Source of the DNA: a virus
Lineage: Duplodnaviria > Heunggongvirae > Uroviricota > Caudoviricetes
Virus record (IMG/VR): IMGVR_UViG_2585427970_000001
Strand: one strand, 5' to 3'
DNA length: 64,000 nucleotides
Position 1 is the first letter of the stretch, and each line of letters opens with the position of its first letter. The notes beneath the pieces are model-generated. The model saw nothing but the letters and a program-made list of their open reading frames with translations, was not told where the DNA came from and did not search any database. Below, piece by piece: positions 37,159 to 49,829 of the stretch. Made by a program: the position numbers and the translations under genes.

Positions 37159-39887
<2,729 letters not shown>

Positions 39888-39889
<2 letters not shown>

Positions 39890-41215
39890 CACCCTCCACG
39901 CCCTGACGGGCGTGGATTCCTGCTACGTTCAGGCTGTCGCCTGAATCATTTCGGTGGGTTCCTGCTTCAACGGGCGGCCTGACTGCACCATCCCTCCACA
40001 GGCAAGTACGGCGTGCCCCGCCGCTAAAATGTTACGAGCGCCGTTTACATCGGCGTTCGCTGTATATCCACATACCTGGCATCTGAATTTACTTTGTGAC
40101 AGGCGATTTTCTTTCGCTGTATGACCACAGCACGCGCAACGCTGGCTTGTGTACGCTGGCGGAACAGCAAGCACCTGACCGCCACGCCAGAGCTGCTTGT
40201 ACTCAAGCTGGCGGCGCATTTCATACCAGCCCTGATCCAGTATCGAACGGTTTAAACCTGATTTTGCCCGGACATTGCGACCCGGATGACTTATCGTTCC
40301 CGCCGCTGACTTTGACATGTATTTAACCTTCAAATCCTCAATGACAATCATTGCGTGGTTTTTGCTGACGGTCGTTGTGACTTTGTGAAGGTAGTCCCTG
40401 CGGATATTTGCGATACGGGAATGCAGTCGCTGTATTTTGCGTTTCTGCTTCTGCCAGTTGTTGCTGAATTTGACCTTGCGGCTTAACTGGCGCTGAAGTC
40501 TCGCCAGCTTTTTCTGGTTTTTCTGGAAACTGTTTACAGGCTCAAAGACTGTGCCATCTGACAGCGTGGCGAGCCTGGCCACGCCAGCATCCAGTCCGAC
40601 CATTGATGCTGAAGGGTGAACAGGAGTGGATACTTCACTTTCTGTCTGAATACTGATGTACCATTTACCGCAGGACTGGCTGACAGTGACATTTTTCACA
40701 ATCCCCGTGACCTGCCGGCTGTTCCGGTAGCGCACCCAGCCAAGTTTCGGCAGAAAAATACGGCTGTTTTCCTGGTCGAGCTTAACACCCTGCGGGTAGC
40801 GGAATGCATCATTCTGTCCCCGCTTTTTGAATCGGGGAAAAGCCGCCCGCTTCTGGAAGAAATTTTTGTAGGCCCGCTCAAGGTCTTTCAGTGACTGCTG
40901 CAATGGCTGTGAGGGAGAATCTTTAAGCCATTCGGTTTCAGTGTCTTTTTTCCACTCAACCAACCAGGAAGCCATTTTCGTGTAAGGGATGTATTTATTC
41001 CCGGCCTCATAATTTTCATTCTGAAGTGCCAGTGCACGATTGAAAACGAAACGACAAGCTCCGGCAAAGAGCCTCATTTGACGCTCCTGTTGACCACCGG
41101 GTCTTAACTGGAATTTAAATGCTTGTAGTCGCTTCATCCCACTATTTTAAACAAAAACAGTTAGGTGGAAAACCACGCCTTATATCCCCGCCCTGAAGGA
41201 CGGGATTTTACGGCG
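39888..41215 (-). mobile_element. IS200/IS605-family element, tnpB-only (IS1341-type), copy 1; boundaries approximate
   Basis: TnpB ORF plus conserved 3' end with hairpin CCACGCCC-N5-GGGCGTGG and terminal TGTCA; left end homologous (about 80%) to copy 2. Confidence 0.75.
39929..41137 (-). CDS. tnpB: TnpB (OrfB_IS605, RuvC-like with Zn-finger) RNA-guided nuclease homologue
   Basis: 402 aa; CxxC...CxxC zinc finger (CACCGH...CQVCG); about 97% identical to the copy at 48216-49424. Confidence 0.9.
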
Positions 41216-41230
41216 CACCGGATAACCACC

Positions 41231-41256
41231 AAAAATAACCCCGGCGGCTGCCGGGG
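41231..41256 (-). terminator. Intrinsic terminator downstream of lyz (minus strand)
   Basis: CCCCGGC-GGCT-GCCGGGG hairpin followed on the minus strand by TTATTTTT. Confidence 0.6.
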
Positions 41257-41516
41257 TTCTCGTTAACTATTATCGCCTTCGCCTGCGTGCCATATATTTT
41301 CGCACCGCGCGGCGTGGACAATCTGAAGCGGTTTCTTTCTGTTGCATCAATCTCGCAGCCATGCTCAAAAATGTCAGGCACAGCCGAAGCCCGGCATACA
41401 ATAGCGGTTCCAGTGGCCACGTCTCATTGAGCACATATACCGCCATGAAAATCGAGTCAAAAACTATCGCCGCCAGCGATAACTTCATTGTCGAAAGTCG
41501 GCGGAGCTGCCGGAGT

Positions 41517-42074
41517 TTATTCATTGACAAGCCCCGTCAGGCAAAGCTGGCGTTCTTCTTCACGGCGAATCTTTAACCCGGGCAGGGGGACGCCGTTACT
41601 GTTCACGAAATCAGGGAGATGGTTACACATATTCACCCATTCCCCTTTCTGCGCCCACTTGTGGATGGACGTTTCTACTCGCATGCCTCGCGCTTTGCTG
41701 TAGTAGGTCCGTAAGCTATTGCATCCCATATTGAATGCCGCGCTTGTCATTGCACTGAAGGCATTATCGGGCATGTCTTTGCCCCGGAAGTGCTGATTAA
41801 TACAGCGTTCAGCGATCAGGATATTCTTTTCCCAATCAGCGGCGATTTGCTGGTCTGTTTTTCGCACACCCGGCGTTACCCCGTGTGTATTACCGATCCC
41901 GTCAGTCCATACCCCTGCCGGGCACATGTATGGATCACGTCGGCAACCTTCAGCGTTACCAATCAGCTCAAGCCCAGCCTGGTTGGTTCGCACATTGCCA
42001 TTACCCATCACGATGGTAATCATCACCGCGATAGCGCAAATTGCACCGCCTCCTGCGGCTGTTTTTCCCTTCAT
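41517..42074 (-). CDS. lyz: SAR-endolysin Lyz (T4-lysozyme-type with N-terminal signal-anchor-release domain)
   Basis: 185 aa from MKGKTAAGGGAICAIAVMITIVMGNGNVRTNQAGLELIGNAEGCRRDPY...; the ORF extends 33 codons upstream to 42173. Confidence 0.9.
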   Translation of the reverse strand: MKGKTAAGGGAICAIAVMITIVMGNGNVRTNQAGLELIGNAEGCRRDPYMCPAGVWTDGIGNTHGVTPGVRKTDQQIAADWEKNILIAERCINQHFRGKDMPDNAFSAMTSAAFNMGCNSLRTYYSKARGMRVETSIHKWAQKGEWVNMCNHLPDFVNSNGVPLPGLKIRREEERQLCLTGLVNE

Positions 42075-42207
42075 AAAGACCTCATAAGCGAATTTTTTAC
42101 GCTCCAGGACAAACACCCATTCACAGCCAATACCGACTGACTCGATCCCTTTAGAAGGCACAGGATAATGCAAATCACTTGTTAGCTACGTTTCAAAGAT
42201 ATACATT

Positions 42208-42224
42208 ATTGCTCTAATTAATTT
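42208..42224 (+). promoter_or_regulatory. C1 operator (16/17) in the lyz-ssb divergent intergenic region
   Basis: ATTGCTCTAATTAATTT. Confidence 0.65.
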
Positions 42225-42243
42225 ATTTTATTAGGTAAGATAA

Positions 42244-42768
42244 GTGGCACAACGCGGTGTAAACAAAGTCATCCTGATTGGTACCCTGGGGCAAGACCCG
42301 GAGATCATGTATATACCAAATGGCGGAGCGGTCGGAAGACTCAGCATCGCAACGAATGAATCATGGCGCGACAAGCAAACGGGCCAACAGAAAGAGCAAA
42401 CAGAATGGCATAAAGTCGTTTTGTTCGGAAAACTTGCTGAAATTGCGAGTGAGTATTTACGAAAAGGTTCTCAGGTCTACATCGAAGGGAAACTTAAAAC
42501 CCGTAAGTGGACAGATGACGCCGGTGTAGAACGTTACACGACGGAAATTATCGTCAGCCAGGGCGGCACCATGCAAATGATCGGCGCTCGCCGCGACGAT
42601 TCACAATTCTCAAATGGCTGGGGGCAGTCAAACCAACCTCAAAACCTCAAAACCACCAGCAATACAGCGGTGGCAGTAAACCTCAGAGCAACGCCAATAG
42701 CGAACCTCCAATGGACTTTGAAGACGATATTCCATTTTGAGAGGGCTGAAAGTTGCTCGATTACTTAA
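42244..42768 (+). CDS. ssb: Single-stranded DNA-binding protein; frame disrupted near 42640-42660, canonical C-terminus in another frame ending at 42740
   Basis: N-terminal OB-fold [20 protein letters not shown]...[50 protein letters not shown]; ...[12 protein letters not shown] is read in the -1 frame at 42702-42740. Confidence 0.8.
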
Positions 42769-42873
42769 AAATAACTTTACCTAATTGGTGTAAAAAAATG
42801 GGCGCAACAAAGCGCCCCAACAATAGAGTTTCAAATTAATAAAAAGGTAATAAATAACATGAAGTTAAATTGA

Positions 42874-42960
42874 GAAGAGGCAATTTTATTGCCTCTTCAA
42901 AGGTGGCATGAGGGTGCCACCTATATGCGGGCAGTGACATCACTCCCTTCCCGCATATTC
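42874..42960. terminator. Cluster of three stem-loops between ssb and the porin 3' end (likely bidirectional terminators)
   Basis: GAAGAGGCAA-TTTTA-TTGCCTCTTC (42874-42898); GGTGGCA-N5-TGCCACC; ATATGCGGG-N21-CCCGCATAT. Confidence 0.5.
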
Positions 42961-42973
42961 TTACCTACCAAAA

Positions 42974-44086
42974 TTAGAATTGGTAGGTCATACCAACAGC
43001 AACGATGTTGTCGGTTGCAACCTCAGATCTTTTGGTAAATTCACTTTCATCAATCAGGTTGATCTTGTAGTCAACGAAAGCGGACATATTTTTGTTGAAG
43101 TAATAAGTCGCACCCAAGTCGATGTATTCAACCAGATCCTGGCTGCCGAACGCACCAATATTTTCACCGCGAGAGTGCAGATAAGCGATGGACGGACGCA
43201 GGCCGAAATCAAACTGGTATTGAGCAACAGCTTCAAAGTTTTTCGCCTTGTTCGCGATAAAGTCATCACCGAAGACAGTCATATTCTGAGTTTCAGAATA
43301 AGTTGCAGCCAGGTAAATGTTATTTGCGTCATATTTCAGGCCAGTAGCCCATACTTCAGCAGTTTTACCAGAAGCATTCAGAGGATCCTTTTTAGCATAG
43401 GATACCTGCCCATCAGTACGATCAGATTTTGCATAGGTTGCACCAACGCCAAATCCTTCATAATCGTAAGTAGCAGACAGACCAAAGCCATCACCATTAG
43501 ATTCAACTACGTCACGGCCTTTCCAGTTGTTCACTTTTGCAGCACTATCATTTTTACCTTGATACTGCAAAGCAAAGTTCAGACCATCAACCAGGCCGAA
43601 GAAATCATTGTTACGGTAGGTGGCTACGCCAGTAGCACGCTGGGTCATAAATACATCGGTCTGAGTCCAGGTATCTCCACCAAACTCAGGCAGCACGTCA
43701 GTCCAAGCGCCAATATCATAAGCTACACCATAGTTGCGACCATAGTCGATTGAACCATAATCAGCAAAACGGAGGCCAGCAAATGCAAGACGAGTTTTAT
43801 CTTTATCAGAGCCCTCAGATTCAGTACGGTTACCTTTAAATTCGTACTCCCACTGACCAAAACCGGTTAACTGGTCATTAATCTGAGTTTCACCTTTGAA
43901 TCCCAGACGAGCATAAGTCTTATCTCCGTCATCACTAGCTGAAGAAGAGAAGTAATGTTCTGCGTTAACTTTGCCGTACAGATCCAGTTTATTACCGTCT
44001 TTGTTGTAGATTTCAGCTGCTTGCGCAGACATTGCCATCAGGACAGATGCTGCAACCGCAGAGAGTGCCACTGTGATTTTTTTCAT
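42974..44086 (-). CDS. General bacterial porin, OmpC/OmpF/PhoE family
   Basis: 370 aa; signal peptide [39 protein letters not shown]; beta-strand-rich body; C-terminal ...VGMTYQF. Confidence 0.9.
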
Positions 44087-44195
44087 TTTTTTTGCCCTTT
44101 AGATTGAACTTTTCAGTAGAAAAGAAGTCACTGCGGACAAATGTTTATCTTTTTTGGATTCGTGTTTCAAGTTTTGCAAATAAAAATCAAGGTAT

Positions 44196-44217
44196 TTTTG
44201 TGATCAAAATCACAAAT
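44196..44217. promoter_or_regulatory. Candidate CRP binding site (perfect TGTGA-N6-TCACA) about 113 bp upstream of the porin start
   Basis: TGTGATCAAAATCACA at 44199-44214 within a 740-bp AT-rich leader. Confidence 0.5.
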
Positions 44218-44827
44218 AATAGCCTTGAAAACCCAATGGACTATTAGAAAAAACTCAATTCACAGAATAAAAATTGACAAAATAGATCAAAAAACAATCA
44301 AAAATAAGCACAAAAGACAAACAATTAAATTATCACAAAAATAATAACTGTCAAAAATAGATAGCCTGTTAATTAACAGGGCTTTAATGGATGTAGACTT
44401 GAAATCTACTTAAAAATTAGAATCAAATTAATTACTGCCGATTGGGTATTAAATTGAATCTATATTGTGAGAGTTAAAGACGATGTGTTTTAGTTATAAA
44501 TGTTATTCCCTAAAATGGAGCGGTCTCATCGAATCCTGATTAATAACGAGCTAAGCTAATTCATTTTAGTATGTGTATATCTTTACCCTCTGAATATGCA
44601 ATAAAGAAGAGATATTAAACAATATGTAGCTTCAGGATTGACTCTGGAAGAATTAAAAGATCGACTAAAGTGTTCAATATGTGGTGAGCGAAACGCAAAA
44701 ATTAATTTTTTTTGATCTAACATATTAGGTAACGGCTTGCTTCCATAACCTAAAGCAAGCCACTACGCGTTTACTTTAAGTACACAATTAACATATCAGA
44801 ACAGATTATTTTTGCACAATCAGGGAG

Positions 44828-45139
44828 TTAATATACGATCTGGTCTACATGATCACCAAAATCATCATCGTCGTCGTCATCATCGCCACCATCTACTGCT
44901 GGCCAATCAACAAACCAGCCAGCGTAAAGATGCAGCGTTCGGAGAACATCACTTGCGGGAGCATCAAGGGTGTTAACGAATCCCATATAGCTATTGGGAT
45001 TTGCCCCAGCTATGGCTTCAGCGATCATGTCCTCGGTAATGTCACCGGAGATAATGCTTAAACGCCCGGAAACTTCTTCATTATCATCAAATTCGATAAT
45101 GGCATCTCCGCCTAATGGCGCTGCGATTTTAATCTGCAT
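44828..45139 (-). CDS. IddB-like small acidic protein (dar operon, by position)
   Basis: 103 aa with C-terminal poly-Asp tract; overlaps the ddrB stop. Confidence 0.4.
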   Translation of the reverse strand: MQIKIAAPLGGDAIIEFDDNEEVSGRLSIISGDITEDMIAEAIAGANPNSYMGFVNTLDAPASDVLRTLHLYAGWFVDWPAVDGGDDDDDDDDFGDHVDQIVY

Positions 45140-48116
45140 TATTTAGCTCCTTTGCCACACCTAATAACAGTTCCAGCAATCCGTCACCATTCATCAGTGA
45201 TGCGGCAGCGGCCTCTTTGTCATGATACAACTGAAGAGCCATAGAGAATACTTCCGTTGCTGACGTTTTGGAAATAGTCGGTGATTTCTGCCGAATTTTC
45301 CCGGAGTTACTCACTGAGGCTGGCGGGTATACCTTCGCCATATAAATATTACTCAATCGAGATCTGAAGCACCATTCAGGCTTGCCACGCCCACCGATAT
45401 TAACGAAAGATGGCTTATCCCCTTCAACATTGGCCTTCAGGAATGACCGGGCTTTCTCTAACAAACCAGGGTTACTGTACTCAAGATGATGACCCAGCTC
45501 GTGCCACAGTGCATTTGCATTTTCATCGTGCAAATCGACAGCAACAACACCATTAAGATTTGCATACGCCCTACCCTTGTGGTGAATTACCCTTGATAAG
45601 GTTGATATTTTCCCGCCGGTCAGGCGATAAATATCAGCAAGTTCCTTGCGCAGGTCTATTCCACCATTCTGTCCAGCGCGGGCTTCTTCCACTTCTTCCG
45701 TGATAAAAGAGTCGGCCCACTCAAGAGCTTTTTCTTCTGATACAGATGAGTTGGCGATCGCACTGTTCATGGCAGATAACACTTTCTCGTAGACCGAATC
45801 CATACTTCGCTGATTCATTTGCCAGCGTGTCTGCGGGTTATATGAGAATCGCTTAAGTAGTTGGTCAAGCTGCTCAAGTTCTTCTTCACTGACATACTTT
45901 TTAGCCTCACCAATAATGCCAGGGAGAATATTGCCGTTAGGATTAAACGCTCGCGAAAGGAAGAGTTTCAGCGCCCCCATGCCCTCCGATGCTTCAATAT
46001 CACCAATAACCCGGTTAACAATGGCCGCACTCTTCGGATTAGCATCCGCCAACGCTCTGGCTACGATTTGCAGGGACGATACGACCTCACGCTGCATATC
46101 AGTCCTGATCTCATCAATAAACTCTGGCGTTATGCCGTGCTCTTTAAGGATATCCCGGCCTTCCGCCGTTACCCCATCGATATCACCGACATGTTTATTA
46201 ACACGACTTTGCAATGCCTTAAATGCCTTCAGAATTCCACGGGAATCATCCGCTTTACTAACGGCCTTCCTGAATGCTGGCAAGAAGTCTGAGTTAACCT
46301 CATTTTGTTGATCGGCCCACTGAATGGAGGCTTCTTTCATCTCGTCCAGAGTCAGATCACCCAACGCGGTATGGTCTGTGAATATGAGCGACAACCTCTG
46401 AACCATTTCTGCCAATGGTGATGCCGAATGCGCCGCGCTAAGGAATGCTTTCACCCTGGTTGGGCGAATGGAAAACCAGTCAATAGCTGGTGGCATATCT
46501 CCGTTTTGTATCGCCTGCGCTATCTCATCAAAGCCATCGCGCCCAAGGGAAGATGCGTGATTTAACAATCCGCGAAGTAACGAATTGCTGATACCGAATA
46601 ATCGGCACCATTTATTCACGTCGGCAACAGGCATTCGAACAAAATGCGCAAGCACTTGTACAAGCTGTTCATCCTGGGGATCTGTACGGGAAAGCAGCCT
46701 GATCAGATGAATAATGTCTTTGATGCCGGATGCCCGATGTAATAGCAAGCTGGTATATGGAGCAACACCGTTGTAACTACCGCCGGAAGCTGACTCGAAA
46801 AGACCGCCGGATATCCCTTGCATACCTTCGTTTTCCAGTTCCTGAGATACCTGGCGAAGGATATCCTGTAACGACACATCGCCGCCGCCAAACATATCCC
46901 CGAGCGCCTGGCCCTGATGCTGTAACTCATCATTGATACGTTGCGCCATCAATTTAAAGGCGGTGGCCATACGCTTCGCGCTACGGTTATTCGCGACGAT
47001 GAACAACGCGAGTGCTTTCACTTCCGGGGCCGTTTCGCTGAACATATCCCCCTGAGCAATAACATCGGTAATATGCTGGCCTGACTCCTTCGATTGCCTT
47101 ACCAGGTCTACCGCATCTTTCAATGCCGCCAGCGCCTTTTTATCGAGGCTATCCGCTGTCTCAATGCCATCAACAATAGTTGTCACAGCCTGCTTGTGCG
47201 CTTCTCCTGATAAAGCCTGCATCTGGACAAAATCATTGGCTGCCGCATTAAGCGCCGTCAGAACATTACGCATATCCGGATCAGGTTCTTCTGCAACCAT
47301 CCTTACTAGGCGCGCATCCTTATATGCCTTGGCAAAGATCGCGTTTTGTATACGGTCTACAAGTTGCCGTGTTGGTCGCCCATCTTCAGTTACAAGGCCA
47401 GCCGCCTGTGTGGCACCAACTTGCGTCATAAATCCGCGAATAAACGCGTCATTACTGCGGCTAAGCAGATCTCCGCTTTCTGACGGATTAAACAGCGCCA
47501 TCATCGCCGGTGTTATGCTGTCGGCATCAACAAAAGCCTTTTCACTGGCTGCCATTTCCTGAAGATCAGAAATATTTGAGTCCTTGGCAAACTGAACGCG
47601 GTCAACCTTCGTTAACCGGCGGCGCACCAGTACCGGAGCCGTCATTGATTCAACCTTTTCAGTACGTATGCCGAATTCGGTCGCATGTTCAATCAGGTAC
47701 TCCCGATACCGATCCGCATTACCGTCCTGATAGGCTTTAATGATCCCCATGGTACGTCCATTACCTGACTCAACTGCATTGTCCTCACCAATTATCGGTG
47801 CGCCATGGCTGGATAATCCGGAATCGGTAAGCTGAGCAGGCCGCAAATCTTTGGATATCTGGTTAACCTGAAGAAGGCTGGATGCGCGGGTCCGGTCGCG
47901 CGGCTGAAGTTCCTGGGGATAGTCAGGATTAATTTTCCCATCCAGAGTATTGGATACCAAAATAGCTGAGGCATCGACGATATCAAACGCTGTTTTTACC
48001 TCGTCTCCCTTCGCTGTCACCACATACGAAACCCGCCCATAATCGGGCAGGTTCTTTAGCAGCTCGATCAGCGTTTCTATGCTGGTGGCCATTACCACCT
48101 GATCGCTTAAGCTCAT
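45129..48116 (-). CDS. ddrB: DdrB-like large Dar-operon protein
   Basis: 995-aa ORF following darA-ddrA on the same strand (P1 dar operon order). Confidence 0.55.
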   Translation of the reverse strand: MSLSDQVVMATSIETLIELLKNLPDYGRVSYVVTAKGDEVKTAFDIVDASAILVSNTLDGKINPDYPQELQPRDRTRASSLLQVNQISKDLRPAQLTDSGLSSHGAPIIGEDNAVESGNGRTMGIIKAYQDGNADRYREYLIEHATEFGIRTEKVESMTAPVLVRRRLTKVDRVQFAKDSNISDLQEMAASEKAFVDADSITPAMMALFNPSESGDLLSRSNDAFIRGFMTQVGATQAAGLVTEDGRPTRQLVDRIQNAIFAKAYKDARLVRMVAEEPDPDMRNVLTALNAAANDFVQMQALSGEAHKQAVTTIVDGIETADSLDKKALAALKDAVDLVRQSKESGQHITDVIAQGDMFSETAPEVKALALFIVANNRSAKRMATAFKLMAQRINDELQHQGQALGDMFGGGDVSLQDILRQVSQELENEGMQGISGGLFESASGGSYNGVAPYTSLLLHRASGIKDIIHLIRLLSRTDPQDEQLVQVLAHFVRMPVADVNKWCRLFGISNSLLRGLLNHASSLGRDGFDEIAQAIQNGDMPPAIDWFSIRPTRVKAFLSAAHSASPLAEMVQRLSLIFTDHTALGDLTLDEMKEASIQWADQQNEVNSDFLPAFRKAVSKADDSRGILKAFKALQSRVNKHVGDIDGVTAEGRDILKEHGITPEFIDEIRTDMQREVVSSLQIVARALADANPKSAAIVNRVIGDIEASEGMGALKLFLSRAFNPNGNILPGIIGEAKKYVSEEELEQLDQLLKRFSYNPQTRWQMNQRSMDSVYEKVLSAMNSAIANSSVSEEKALEWADSFITEEVEEARAGQNGGIDLRKELADIYRLTGGKISTLSRVIHHKGRAYANLNGVVAVDLHDENANALWHELGHHLEYSNPGLLEKARSFLKANVEGDKPSFVNIGGRGKPEWCFRSRLSNIYMAKVYPPASVSNSGKIRQKSPTISKTSATEVFSMALQLYHDKEAAAASLMNGDGLLELLLGVAKELNNAD

Positions 48117-48125
48117 CCCTGTTAC

Positions 48126-49466
48126 GCCTTATCCAATGTGCCGCCCCCTACGCTCCTCATAGTGGGGATATAAGGCACAGTTTTCCTCCCGGCTATTTTT
48201 GCTTAAAATAGTGACATGAAACAACAGGTGTCATTCAAATTCCGGTTAAAACCAGATGGTCAACAGGAGCGTCAAATGAGGCGCTTTGCCGGAGCTTGTC
48301 GTTTCGTTTTCAACCGTGCTCTGGCGCTTCAGAATGAGAATCATGAGGCCGGTAAAAAATACATCCCTTACACGAAAATGGCTTCCTGGTTGGTTGAGTG
48401 GAAAAAAGACACTGAAACCGAATGGCTTAAAGATTCTCCCTCACAGCCATTGCAACAGTCACTGAAAGACCTTGAGCGGGCTTACAAAAACTTCTTCCGG
48501 AAGCGGGCAGCTTTTCCCCGATTCAAAAAGCGGGGACAGAATGATGCATTCCGCTACCCGCAGGGTGTTAAGCTCGATCAGGAAAACAGCCGTATTTTTC
48601 TGCCGAAACTTGGCTGGATGCGCTACCGGAATAGCCGTCAGGTCACGGGTATTGTGAAAAATGTTACTGTCAGCCAGTCCTGCGGTAAGTGGTACATCAG
48701 TATTCAGACAGAAAGAGAGGTATCCACTCCTGTTCACCCTTCAGCATCAATGGTCGGACTGGATGCTGGCGTGGCTAAACTCGCCACGCTGTCAGATGGC
48801 ACAGTCTTTGAACCTGTAAATAGTTTTCAGAAAAACCAGAAGAAGCTGGCGAGACTTCAGCGACAGTTAAGCCGCAAGGTCAAATTCAGCAACAACTGGC
48901 AGAAGCAGAAACGCAAAATACAGCGACTGCATTCCCGTATCGCAAATATCCGCAGGGACTACCTTCACAAAGTCACAACGACCGTCAGCAAAAACCACGC
49001 AATGATTGTCATTGAGGATTTGAAGGTTAAATACATGTCAAAGTCAGCGGCGGGAACGATAAGTCATCCGGGTCGCAATGTCCGGGCAAAATCAGGTTTA
49101 AACCGTTCGATACTGGATCAGGGCTGGTATGAAATGCGCCGCCAGCTTGAGTACAAGCAGCTCTGGCGTGGCGGTCAGGTGCTTGCTGTTCCGCCAGCGT
49201 ACACAAGCCAGCGTTGCGCGTGCTGTGGTCATACAGCGAAAGAAAATCGCCTGTCACAAAGTAAATTCAGATGCCAGGTATGTGGATATACAGCGAACGC
49301 CGATGTAAACGGCGCTCGTAACATTTTAGCGGCGGGGCACGCCGTACTTGCCTGTGGAGGGATGGTGCAGTCAGGCCGCCCGTTGAAGCAGGAACCCACC
49401 GAAATGATTCAGGCGACAGCCTGAACGTAGCAGGAATCCACGCCCTTCGGGGCGTGGAGGATGTCA
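48126..49466 (+). mobile_element. IS200/IS605-family element, tnpB-only, copy 2 (inverted relative to copy 1); boundaries approximate
   Basis: Left end follows TTAC at 48122-48125; right end ...GGAGGATGTCA overlaps the ddrA stop codon; inserted between ddrB and ddrA. Confidence 0.75.
48216..49424 (+). CDS. tnpB: TnpB (OrfB_IS605) RNA-guided nuclease homologue
   Basis: 402 aa, near-identical to copy 1; same Zn-finger and RuvC-like motifs. Confidence 0.9.
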
Positions 49467-49829
49467 CGCTGCCTCTTTAATGTTGGCGGCTATCCATGCC
49501 GCCGTGTGCTGTTTAACCTGGTCCAGGTCGATGTATGTGCCAACATATTGACTCAAGTCCTGTAACGTACCGATAAATGCATCAGTGCTCTGATCGACGA
49601 ATTTATCAGCCAGGAAATCAGCAACCAGTTTTGGCACACCATCATGTACCGAAGGTTGTTTTTCCTCGCCACTACTGCCGCCGGACGCGCCGTACCCCAT
49701 CTGTTGCATGATCTGGTCAATTTCATCGCTGATATCCAGCAACTCCATGCCACTCGCGGTAGCCGCTTTGGACATCAGAGCATCCAACTTATCGCTGAGG
49801 TCCATTAACTCAATAGCTGATAGTGTCAT
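49464..49829 (-). CDS. ddrA: DdrA-like protein
   Basis: 121-aa acidic ORF overlapping the darA stop. Confidence 0.5.
   Translation of the reverse strand: MTLSAIELMDLSDKLDALMSKAATASGMELLDISDEIDQIMQQMGYGASGGSSGEEKQPSVHDGVPKLVADFLADKFVDQSTDAFIGTLQDLSQYVGTYIDLDQVKQHTAAWIAANIKEAA

Follow-up and report, generated by a model that had tools for sequence, protein, structure and literature searches.

Inverted IS609-derived copies encoding TnpB and a predicted guide RNA in a P1-like phage-plasmid, with empty alleles of both insertion sites in relatives

The stretch of viral DNA analysed here (the window; IMG/VR record IMGVR_UViG_2585427970_000001, 64,000 nucleotides (nt)) is a P1-like phage-plasmid that, outside its repeats, shows 97-99% identity to phage P1 and its relatives. 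It carries two inverted copies of a derivative of the insertion sequence (IS) IS609, each encoding a TnpB protein and lacking the transposase gene tnpA. The gene order is prt, pro, copy A, lydE/lydD, lyz, ssb, an OmpC-like porin gene, hxr, ddrB, copy B, ddrA and darA. Copy A occupies positions 39886-41221 on the minus strand (1336 nt), between pro and lydE/lydD/lyz, and copy B occupies 48133-49467 on the plus strand (1335 nt), between ddrB and ddrA; both sites are empty in P1. The copies share an inverted repeat of 1310 nt with 95% identity (39887-41196 versus 48157-49466). A first-pass annotation had placed them at 39888-41215 and 48126-49466; the two inverted copies are real, but their true ends, set by comparison with the empty sites of phage P1, which has neither insertion, are those given above.

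At the site of copy A, P1 is uninterrupted and reads GGTTAT followed by TTAAACGG. On the minus strand, where P1 has GGTGGTTAT joined directly to TTAAACGG, the window has GGTGGTTAT, the element (CCGGTGCG...GGAGGGTGTCAA) and then TTAAACGG. The site of copy B is likewise uninterrupted in P1, with CGCCTTAT followed by GCTGCC; the junction of ...CGCCTTAT with GCTGCCTC... is opened in the window by the element (CCAATGTG...GGAGGATGTCAC). Both copies sit 3' of TTAT without target duplication, and removal of the element restores the P1 empty site exactly. Insertion 3' of a fixed tetra- or pentanucleotide, without duplication and without terminal inverted repeats, is the behaviour of the IS200/IS605 family. 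The TTAT target motif, the candidate transposon-associated motif (TAM), lies at 41222-41225 on the minus strand for copy A, where the plus strand reads ATAA and holds the original TAA of pro, and at 48129-48132 on the plus strand for copy B, where the antisense ATAA holds the original TAA of ddrA.

The subterminal hairpins expected of the family are strong at both right ends, whereas at the left end copy A carries one and copy B only a weak one. The right-end hairpin of copy A (39895-39916, minus) has a 9-bp stem and a 4-nt loop, with a DNA fold z of -4.6 and covariation in relatives at six of its nine pairs; that of copy B lies at 49437-49458 (plus). At the left end of copy A, which includes a subterminal hairpin (41176-41221, minus), 63 nt match the left end of chromosomal E. 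coli IS609 with 95% identity, and the covariance model described below gives a weak match at 41187-41204. The DNA fold of the left-end hairpin reaches z = -1.8 in copy A versus -0.7 in copy B (48133-48175). The shared 3' tail reads ...GTAGCAGGAATCCACGCCC-N4-GGGCGTGGAGG(G/A)TGTCA; the hairpin tail reported earlier is thus found in both copies, but with a loop of 4 nt rather than 5. The relatives comprise 80 sequences at 60-93% protein identity from gamma- and beta-proteobacteria. Their 3' ends have the common form ...GTAGGAATCC-hairpin-GGAGGATGTCAA, with similarity stopping right after TCAA, and at 57 independent loci the sequences beyond the right-end consensus ...GGAGGATGTCAA are unrelated. 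Copy B ends in TCAC (49467), versus TCAA in 56 of 57 relatives, the exception (locus L052) having CCAA. The TCAC end and the weak left hairpin are common to all B-site copies.

From tnpB codon 6 to the right end, identity to the K-12 insQ locus, taken here to represent IS609, is 94.9%. Of 5426 complete E. coli genomes, 5026 contain insQ/IS609, at a median of two copies. In chromosomal IS609 the left end lies about 440 nt upstream of tnpB with a divergent tnpA between them; this gene is a pseudogene in K-12, a truncated open reading frame (ORF) of 95 amino acids (aa) in two other E. coli chromosomes examined, and intact, divergent and 138 aa long in many other genera. The 63 nt that match the IS609 left end are the first of copy A and here stand directly upstream of tnpB. 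Since the left end abuts tnpB and tnpA is absent, the phage copies are tnpA-deletion derivatives of IS609, a form also present in Citrobacter and Kluyvera chromosomes. A tblastn search found no Y1 (HUH) TnpA anywhere in the 64-kb window, so that the transposase usually carried within an IS200/IS605 element is missing and the copies are non-autonomous. The earlier description of tnpB-only IS200/IS605 elements is therefore confirmed and made specific: both copies are IS609 (E. coli insQ, IS200/IS605 family) without its divergent tnpA.

The TnpB of copy A (402 aa; 39929-41137, minus) retains the RuvC residues D183, E267 and D363 together with two CxxC pairs, and the TnpB of copy B (402 aa; 48216-49424, plus) likewise has intact catalytic residues. 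Between the two proteins, 388 of 402 residues agree (96.5%) and 14 differ, in agreement with the approximately 97% identity and 402-aa length first reported. Both contain the Pfam domains HTH_OrfB_IS605, OrfB_IS605 and Cas12f1-like_TNB. Alignment with the TnpB of ISDra2 (PDB 8h1j and 8exa) extends over the full length (E = 3e-52), conserves the D/E/D triad and places the zinc-binding cysteines at C334/C337 and C353/C356. Mutation of the catalytic residues, which would have spoken against a nuclease, was not found, the RuvC triad and the zinc cysteines being intact. An intact ORF of 402 or 404 aa is present in all 17 copies from P1-like replicons, and the catalytic motifs GLDAG, VIEDL and NADVN are conserved in all 15 of these that were inspected; the two pHZZ201 copies, which fall outside the motif tabulation, have annotated intact TnpB coding sequences. 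Between the A-site and B-site lineages, synonymous divergence (dS) is 0.12-0.16, and the ratio of nonsynonymous to synonymous divergence (dN/dS) of 0.14-0.22 indicates that the TnpB protein is under purifying selection.

The last ~145 nt of each copy, which take in the final ~100 nt of tnpB together with the right end, form a predicted guide-RNA (omega RNA) scaffold, at 39886-40030 (minus) in copy A and 49323-49467 (plus) in copy B. For a covariance model, 41 sequences from other genera were used and those of the window and E. coli were left out; the model matches these segments at full length with 159.1 bits (E = 3e-48) and 159.8 bits (E = 2e-48), respectively; they are exactly the two strong matches in the window, and both end on the P1-defined element ends. 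An alignment of 46 sequences over the last 165 nt yields a consensus structure of 39 pairs, in which 96.6% of cells are paired compared with 38-49% when partners are slid by 1-3 columns. Compensatory changes occur in 22 of the 39 pairs, versus 4-10 in the slid controls and 14.6 in shuffles, and none of 500 shuffles reached the observed covariation. The helices comprise a small hairpin, a RAGATH-18-like stem with an internal stem-loop, a hairpin across the tnpB stop codon and the terminal hairpin, along with a possible long-range closing helix. Covariation is found inside the tnpB reading frame (helices 2, 4 and 8) as well as in the terminal hairpin, and the many G-U pairs, which can form on the tnpB-sense strand only, point to an RNA in the tnpB sense.

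No Rfam family matches the region at the gathering threshold; the sub-threshold matches are only RAGATH-18, HgcC and sot0042, all of them families overlapping tnpB 3' ends. RAGATH-18 (RF03064) scores 28.1 bits (E = 0.067; threshold 44.9) at 49351-49394 and 39959-40002, which is a resemblance only. RAGATH-18 RNAs are TnpB guide RNAs (PMC11061315). The proposal that the 3' tail is part of a guide-RNA scaffold, to be checked by a covariance-model search at the 3' ends, thus finds support: the tail belongs to a structured RNA that is conserved and covaries strongly, of the TnpB guide-scaffold kind, at the 3' ends of both copies. The conclusion that the 3' end of each copy encodes a predicted TnpB guide RNA is supported. 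In several A-site copies (L085, L092, L093 and L225), the tnpB stop is lost through a G-to-T change at element position 1291, and the protein is lengthened to 404 aa; this position falls in the hairpin of the RNA model that spans the tnpB stop codon.

Each right end also supplies the stop codon of the convergent phage gene. The TGA of pro (39887-39889, plus) comes from copy A, changing the P1 terminus ...PFK to ...PFN, and the TGA of ddrA (49464-49466, minus) comes from copy B, leaving DdrA (...KEAA) unchanged. The first-pass annotation had correctly read the final TCA of the tail as the antisense of these two stops. Its statement that each element ends exactly on the stop of a phage gene holds as to the TGA at the end, but the element extends one base past the stop and the TGA itself is borne by the IS; the extra base is the third position of the last sense codon. 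In P1, ddrA ends with GCA TAA and pro with AAA TAA, the TAA stops lying inside the TTAT/ATAA target, and these original stops are now at the opposite end of each element. Each element enters the last sense codon after its second base. Read on the opposite strand, TTAT becomes ATAA and the right-end TCAN becomes NTGA. The right end therefore provides a third codon base and an in-frame TGA, which replace the stop removed from the convergent gene. The last codon of ddrA changes from GCA to GCG with no effect on the protein, and Pro differs only in its last residue (K to N). On the other side of copy A, lydE (putative antiholin; 41208-41420, minus), whose P1 counterpart overlaps the end of pro, continues into the left end, and its C-terminus reads ...WWLSGAP versus ...WWLFKRID in P1, the last five residues being exchanged for four from the left end.

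The overlap with stop codons is thus a direct result of the target and end sequences, combined with selection that retains harmless insertions; because pro and ddrA are kept intact, the insertions are tolerable. A third case is found in K-12, where the annotated ydcO stop is formed by the right-end TCA of IS609 (L084 2733-2736). Across the 57 independent loci, a convergent ORF of at least 100 codons ends on the right-end TGA in 9, versus 4 and 4 in the control frames, and among Enterobacterales in 4 of 25 loci versus 0 and 0. This is suggestive of a rule but not strong, the reading being limited by the spurious long ORFs that GC-rich genomes give. Among the papers searched, no description of stop-codon regeneration or of TnpB in P1-like phages was found.

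For characterised TnpB systems, the guide corresponds to the ~16 nt after the right end, and the TAM is the transposon target motif (PMC8612924, PMC10055086). By this rule, the predicted 16-nt guide of copy A is TTAAACGGGTTGATTG (39870-39885, minus), antisense of the last pro codons, and that of copy B is GCTGCCTCTTTAATGT (49468-49483, plus), antisense of the last ddrA codons. Homology among relatives ends exactly at TCAA, before guide A. After TTAT, the guide B sequence agrees with the P1 empty site at all 16 positions, and the guide A sequence agrees at 15 of 16 and matches the G-variant alleles perfectly. Within the window, the protospacers occur only beside TCAC or TCAA. Because TCAA or TCAC replaces TTAT at the resident flank, the resident sites lack the TAM and the guide would not attack them. 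The earlier suggestion of a guide aimed at the flanking phage sequence is accordingly right in that the guide derives from the flank, but the predicted target is the IS-less allele (TTAT plus flank): the combination of motif and guide match is found in the vacant allele and is absent from the donor.

Such vacant alleles occur naturally. In IMG/VR, the B site is represented by 60 contigs with intact TTAT and 16-nt target and by 15 filled contigs, and the A site by 55 empty and 9 filled contigs, so that the filled fraction is 14-20%. Position 9 within protospacer A (39870-39885; IMG/VR loci L156-L224) is G in all 9 filled alleles and A in 48 of 55 empty ones, a polymorphism that may stem from linkage to lineage or from escape from targeting. 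Among ~490 P1-like plasmids of PLSDB, 72 records have a filled site B and 40 a filled site A. The copy B insertion is found at the same site in phages RCS47, SJ46 and vB_EcoM-813R1, and the same insertions occur in plasmids of E. coli, E. fergusonii, E. albertii and Salmonella. Sequences with about 95% identity to this tnpB were also seen in filamentous phage If1 (647 nt inside 'ORF348'), in Aeromonas phage AP1 (289 nt) and, as a full copy, in a Morganella prophage.

Plasmids with both copies are rare (one of ~490 in complete E. coli genomes), and in single-copy plasmids informative sites separate A-type from B-type along the whole element. Against this background, copy A of the window is a composite, being A-type at positions 1-731 and at the last four sites, and identical to the B-type at positions 732-1313. 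This tract (39908-40489, minus), a conversion from B-type sequence, has no differences from copy B, compared with 71 in positions 1-731, whereas the copies of A-only plasmids and copy A of pHZZ201 show ~22 informative differences from the B-type in 732-1313. A Salmonella double-copy plasmid shows the reverse direction, its copy B being A-type at positions 793-1103, and in a third double-copy plasmid, pHZZ201-90K, both copies are unconverted. Conversion tracts in two independent double-copy plasmids indicate that the inverted copies undergo gene conversion.

The first-pass annotation listed lyz, ssb, the porin, iddB and ddrB as bracketed by the pair. The bracketing is borne out, but the label iddB should read hxr: the ORF so named (44828-45139, minus) occupies the hxr position and is annotated as putative repressor Hxr in RCS47. 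The actual iddB, by its P1 position, is a 132-aa ORF (47164-47562, plus) nested antisense within ddrB. The OmpC-like general porin gene (42974-44086, minus; Pfam Porin_1, E = 4e-148) lies between ssb and hxr, an interval that in P1 presumably contains IS1, and is labelled ompC in many P1-like plasmids; a porin on a phage-plasmid could change receptor availability or permeability. Directly downstream of the porin stop, a sub-threshold Rfam match to GcvB (42792-42978, minus; 30.5 bits versus a gathering score of 42, E = 0.0012) has a terminator-like stem and a run of U at its end.

The probable explanation of the locus is a pair of non-autonomous IS609 copies, each with both ends, a TnpB and a guide RNA, predicted to home against IS-less P1-like alleles. 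TnpA acting in trans would have placed each copy into single-stranded P1 DNA just 3' of TTAT without duplication. Each copy would then make TnpB and a ~145-nt RNA carrying a 16-nt guide from the adjoining phage DNA, and the complex would cut P1-like genomes that still hold TTAT plus the guide sequence, namely the IS-less allele, with the occupied site spared by TCAA or TCAC in place of TTAT. Recombinational repair after the cut, or loss of the cut molecule, would keep the IS and spread it among P1-like phage-plasmids, an outcome amounting to homing or gene drive. TnpB is an RNA-guided nuclease (PMC8612924), and experiments with other TnpBs have demonstrated homing to vacant sites (PMC10055086) and gene drive in plasmids (PMC11870625). 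The ends and target of the elements, the intact nuclease, the conserved RNA structure, the natural empty alleles and the recombination between copies are direct observations of this analysis; expression, RNA processing and cleavage we infer for these copies by analogy.

Several points weigh against this explanation. No convincing promoter was found upstream of tnpB, and a promoter and terminator scan around copy B performed no better than shuffles. The score of the covariance model owes much to sequence conservation in a coding region. The single-sequence fold of the 165-nt 3' region is unexceptional (z = -1.8), with a minimum-energy fold that departs from the consensus in the 5' half, so that the case for the RNA rests on covariation. 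Guide A mismatches 48 of the 55 empty alleles at position 9. Copy B, with its atypical TCAC end and weak left hairpin, may no longer be mobile even when TnpA is supplied. The presence/absence pattern could be due to purely vertical descent with occasional loss, and precise excision and homing give similar patterns. Finally, a low-copy plasmid such as P1 gains less advantage from drive (PMC11870625).

An alternative is that the copies are inert passengers, old vertically inherited insertions in two P1-like lineages whose TnpB and RNA are inactive and which persist because they are harmless. The absence of tnpA from the window, the TCAC right end and degenerate left-end hairpin of copy B, the lack of a clear promoter and the filling of just 14-20% of alleles are all compatible with such a history, as is the single flank variant at 9 of 9 filled A sites, which looks like the product of one ancestral insertion. 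Decay of the proteins and RNA is, however, not what the copies display. All 17 have intact ORFs, a dN/dS of ~0.14 over 12-16% synonymous divergence reflects continued selection on the protein, the RNA helices are kept, and the same insertions extend across plasmids of E. coli, E. fergusonii, E. albertii and Salmonella. Inert passengers are therefore considered unlikely, with some weight still to be given to them.

A much less credible view is that the 3' hairpin is merely the right-end DNA hairpin bound by TnpA, with no functional RNA. IS200/IS605 ends do bear subterminal DNA hairpins, and the left end of copy A has a similar one, but three further helices (2, 4 and 8) covary upstream, inside the tnpB frame, the many G-U pairs are possible on the tnpB-sense strand only, and one hairpin can play both roles, as in characterised family members.

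The first-pass annotation further suggested that the inverted pair could mediate inversion of the 7-kb block between the copies. The part of this that stands is that the copies recombine, as the gene-conversion tracts reveal, and 1.3 kb of inverted homology is available to a switch flipping the lydE-to-ddrB block; the inverted isomer, however, is absent from ~990 P1-like records. A query with the synthetic pro-to-ddrB junction expected after inversion retrieved 0 of 492 PLSDB records and 0 of 496 complete-E. coli-genome records with P1-like sequence. In all three double-copy plasmids (window, pHZZ201 and Salmonella) the genes stand in the P1 order, the pair has no associated site-specific recombinase, and inversion would separate ddrB and hxr from the darA-ddrA transcription unit. 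Nothing suggests inversion as a function of the pair, and an inversion switch is highly improbable. A nuclease-dead, TldR-like RNA-guided regulator of pro or ddrA, to which guides antisense to the 3' ends of these genes might point, is more improbable still, given an intact RuvC D/E/D triad and zinc finger, a resident site without TTAT and the architecture of an ordinary IS609.

The element itself is ordinary, of a known kind and already annotated in public genomes, including RCS47 and SJ46. Like IS609 of E. coli (insQ/ydcM in K-12), it has ~95% DNA identity from tnpB codon 6 to the right end, the same left end in copy A, a right end in ...GGAGGATGTCAA and a right-end TCA serving as a convergent stop (ydcO); unlike it, the phage copies lack the ~440-nt divergent tnpA segment, so that the left end abuts tnpB, and copy B has a diverged left-end hairpin and a TCAC end. 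With the TnpB proteins of ISDra2 and of Geobacillus IS605-family elements (Karvelis 2021, PMC8612924; Meers 2023, PMC10055086), the copies share the fold family and catalytic triad, a scaffold overlapping the tnpB 3' end and the right end, a guide from flanking DNA, a TAM equal to the transposon target motif and a vacant site as predicted target. They differ in a TTAT motif rather than TTGAT or a TTTAT-type motif, in lacking tnpA in cis, in residing on a phage-plasmid replicon and in an activity that is predicted from sequence. The insertion-site-set guide predicted to eliminate or convert IS-less copies recalls the plasmid TnpB gene drive (Mears et al. 2025 preprint, PMC11870625), which was studied with engineered ColE1 and pSC101 plasmids, whereas here a natural polymorphic pair of sites is described from nucleotide data. 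Copy B coincides to the nucleotide with the insertion labelled 'insQ transposase' in RCS47 and SJ46; these have copy B only, and the window adds copy A and ~580 nt of exchanged sequence.

A broader and more tentative idea, possible but on balance doubtful, is that IS609-type elements are built to park at convergent stops, TTAT and TCAA being antisense stops in the same register, so that their guides would always consist of conserved C-terminal coding sequence of a phage gene, with little room to mutate. P1-like TnpB pairs might then be gene drives and phage-competition weapons that cut IS-less relatives at co-residence or superinfection, and the position-9 polymorphism of protospacer A could be an escape variant.

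The stop-regeneration rule accounts for the way IS609 abuts convergent gene ends at pro, ddrA and ydcO (K-12), and for annotation it means that the stop codons of these three genes belong to the IS. If the TnpBs are active, P1-like phage-plasmids would offer a natural and experimentally easy setting for TnpB homing, with mature P1 genetics and two defined sites whose presence/absence is polymorphic in hundreds of sequenced plasmids. Such a system, if active, could serve for tests of RNA-guided gene drive and of exclusion among related phages.

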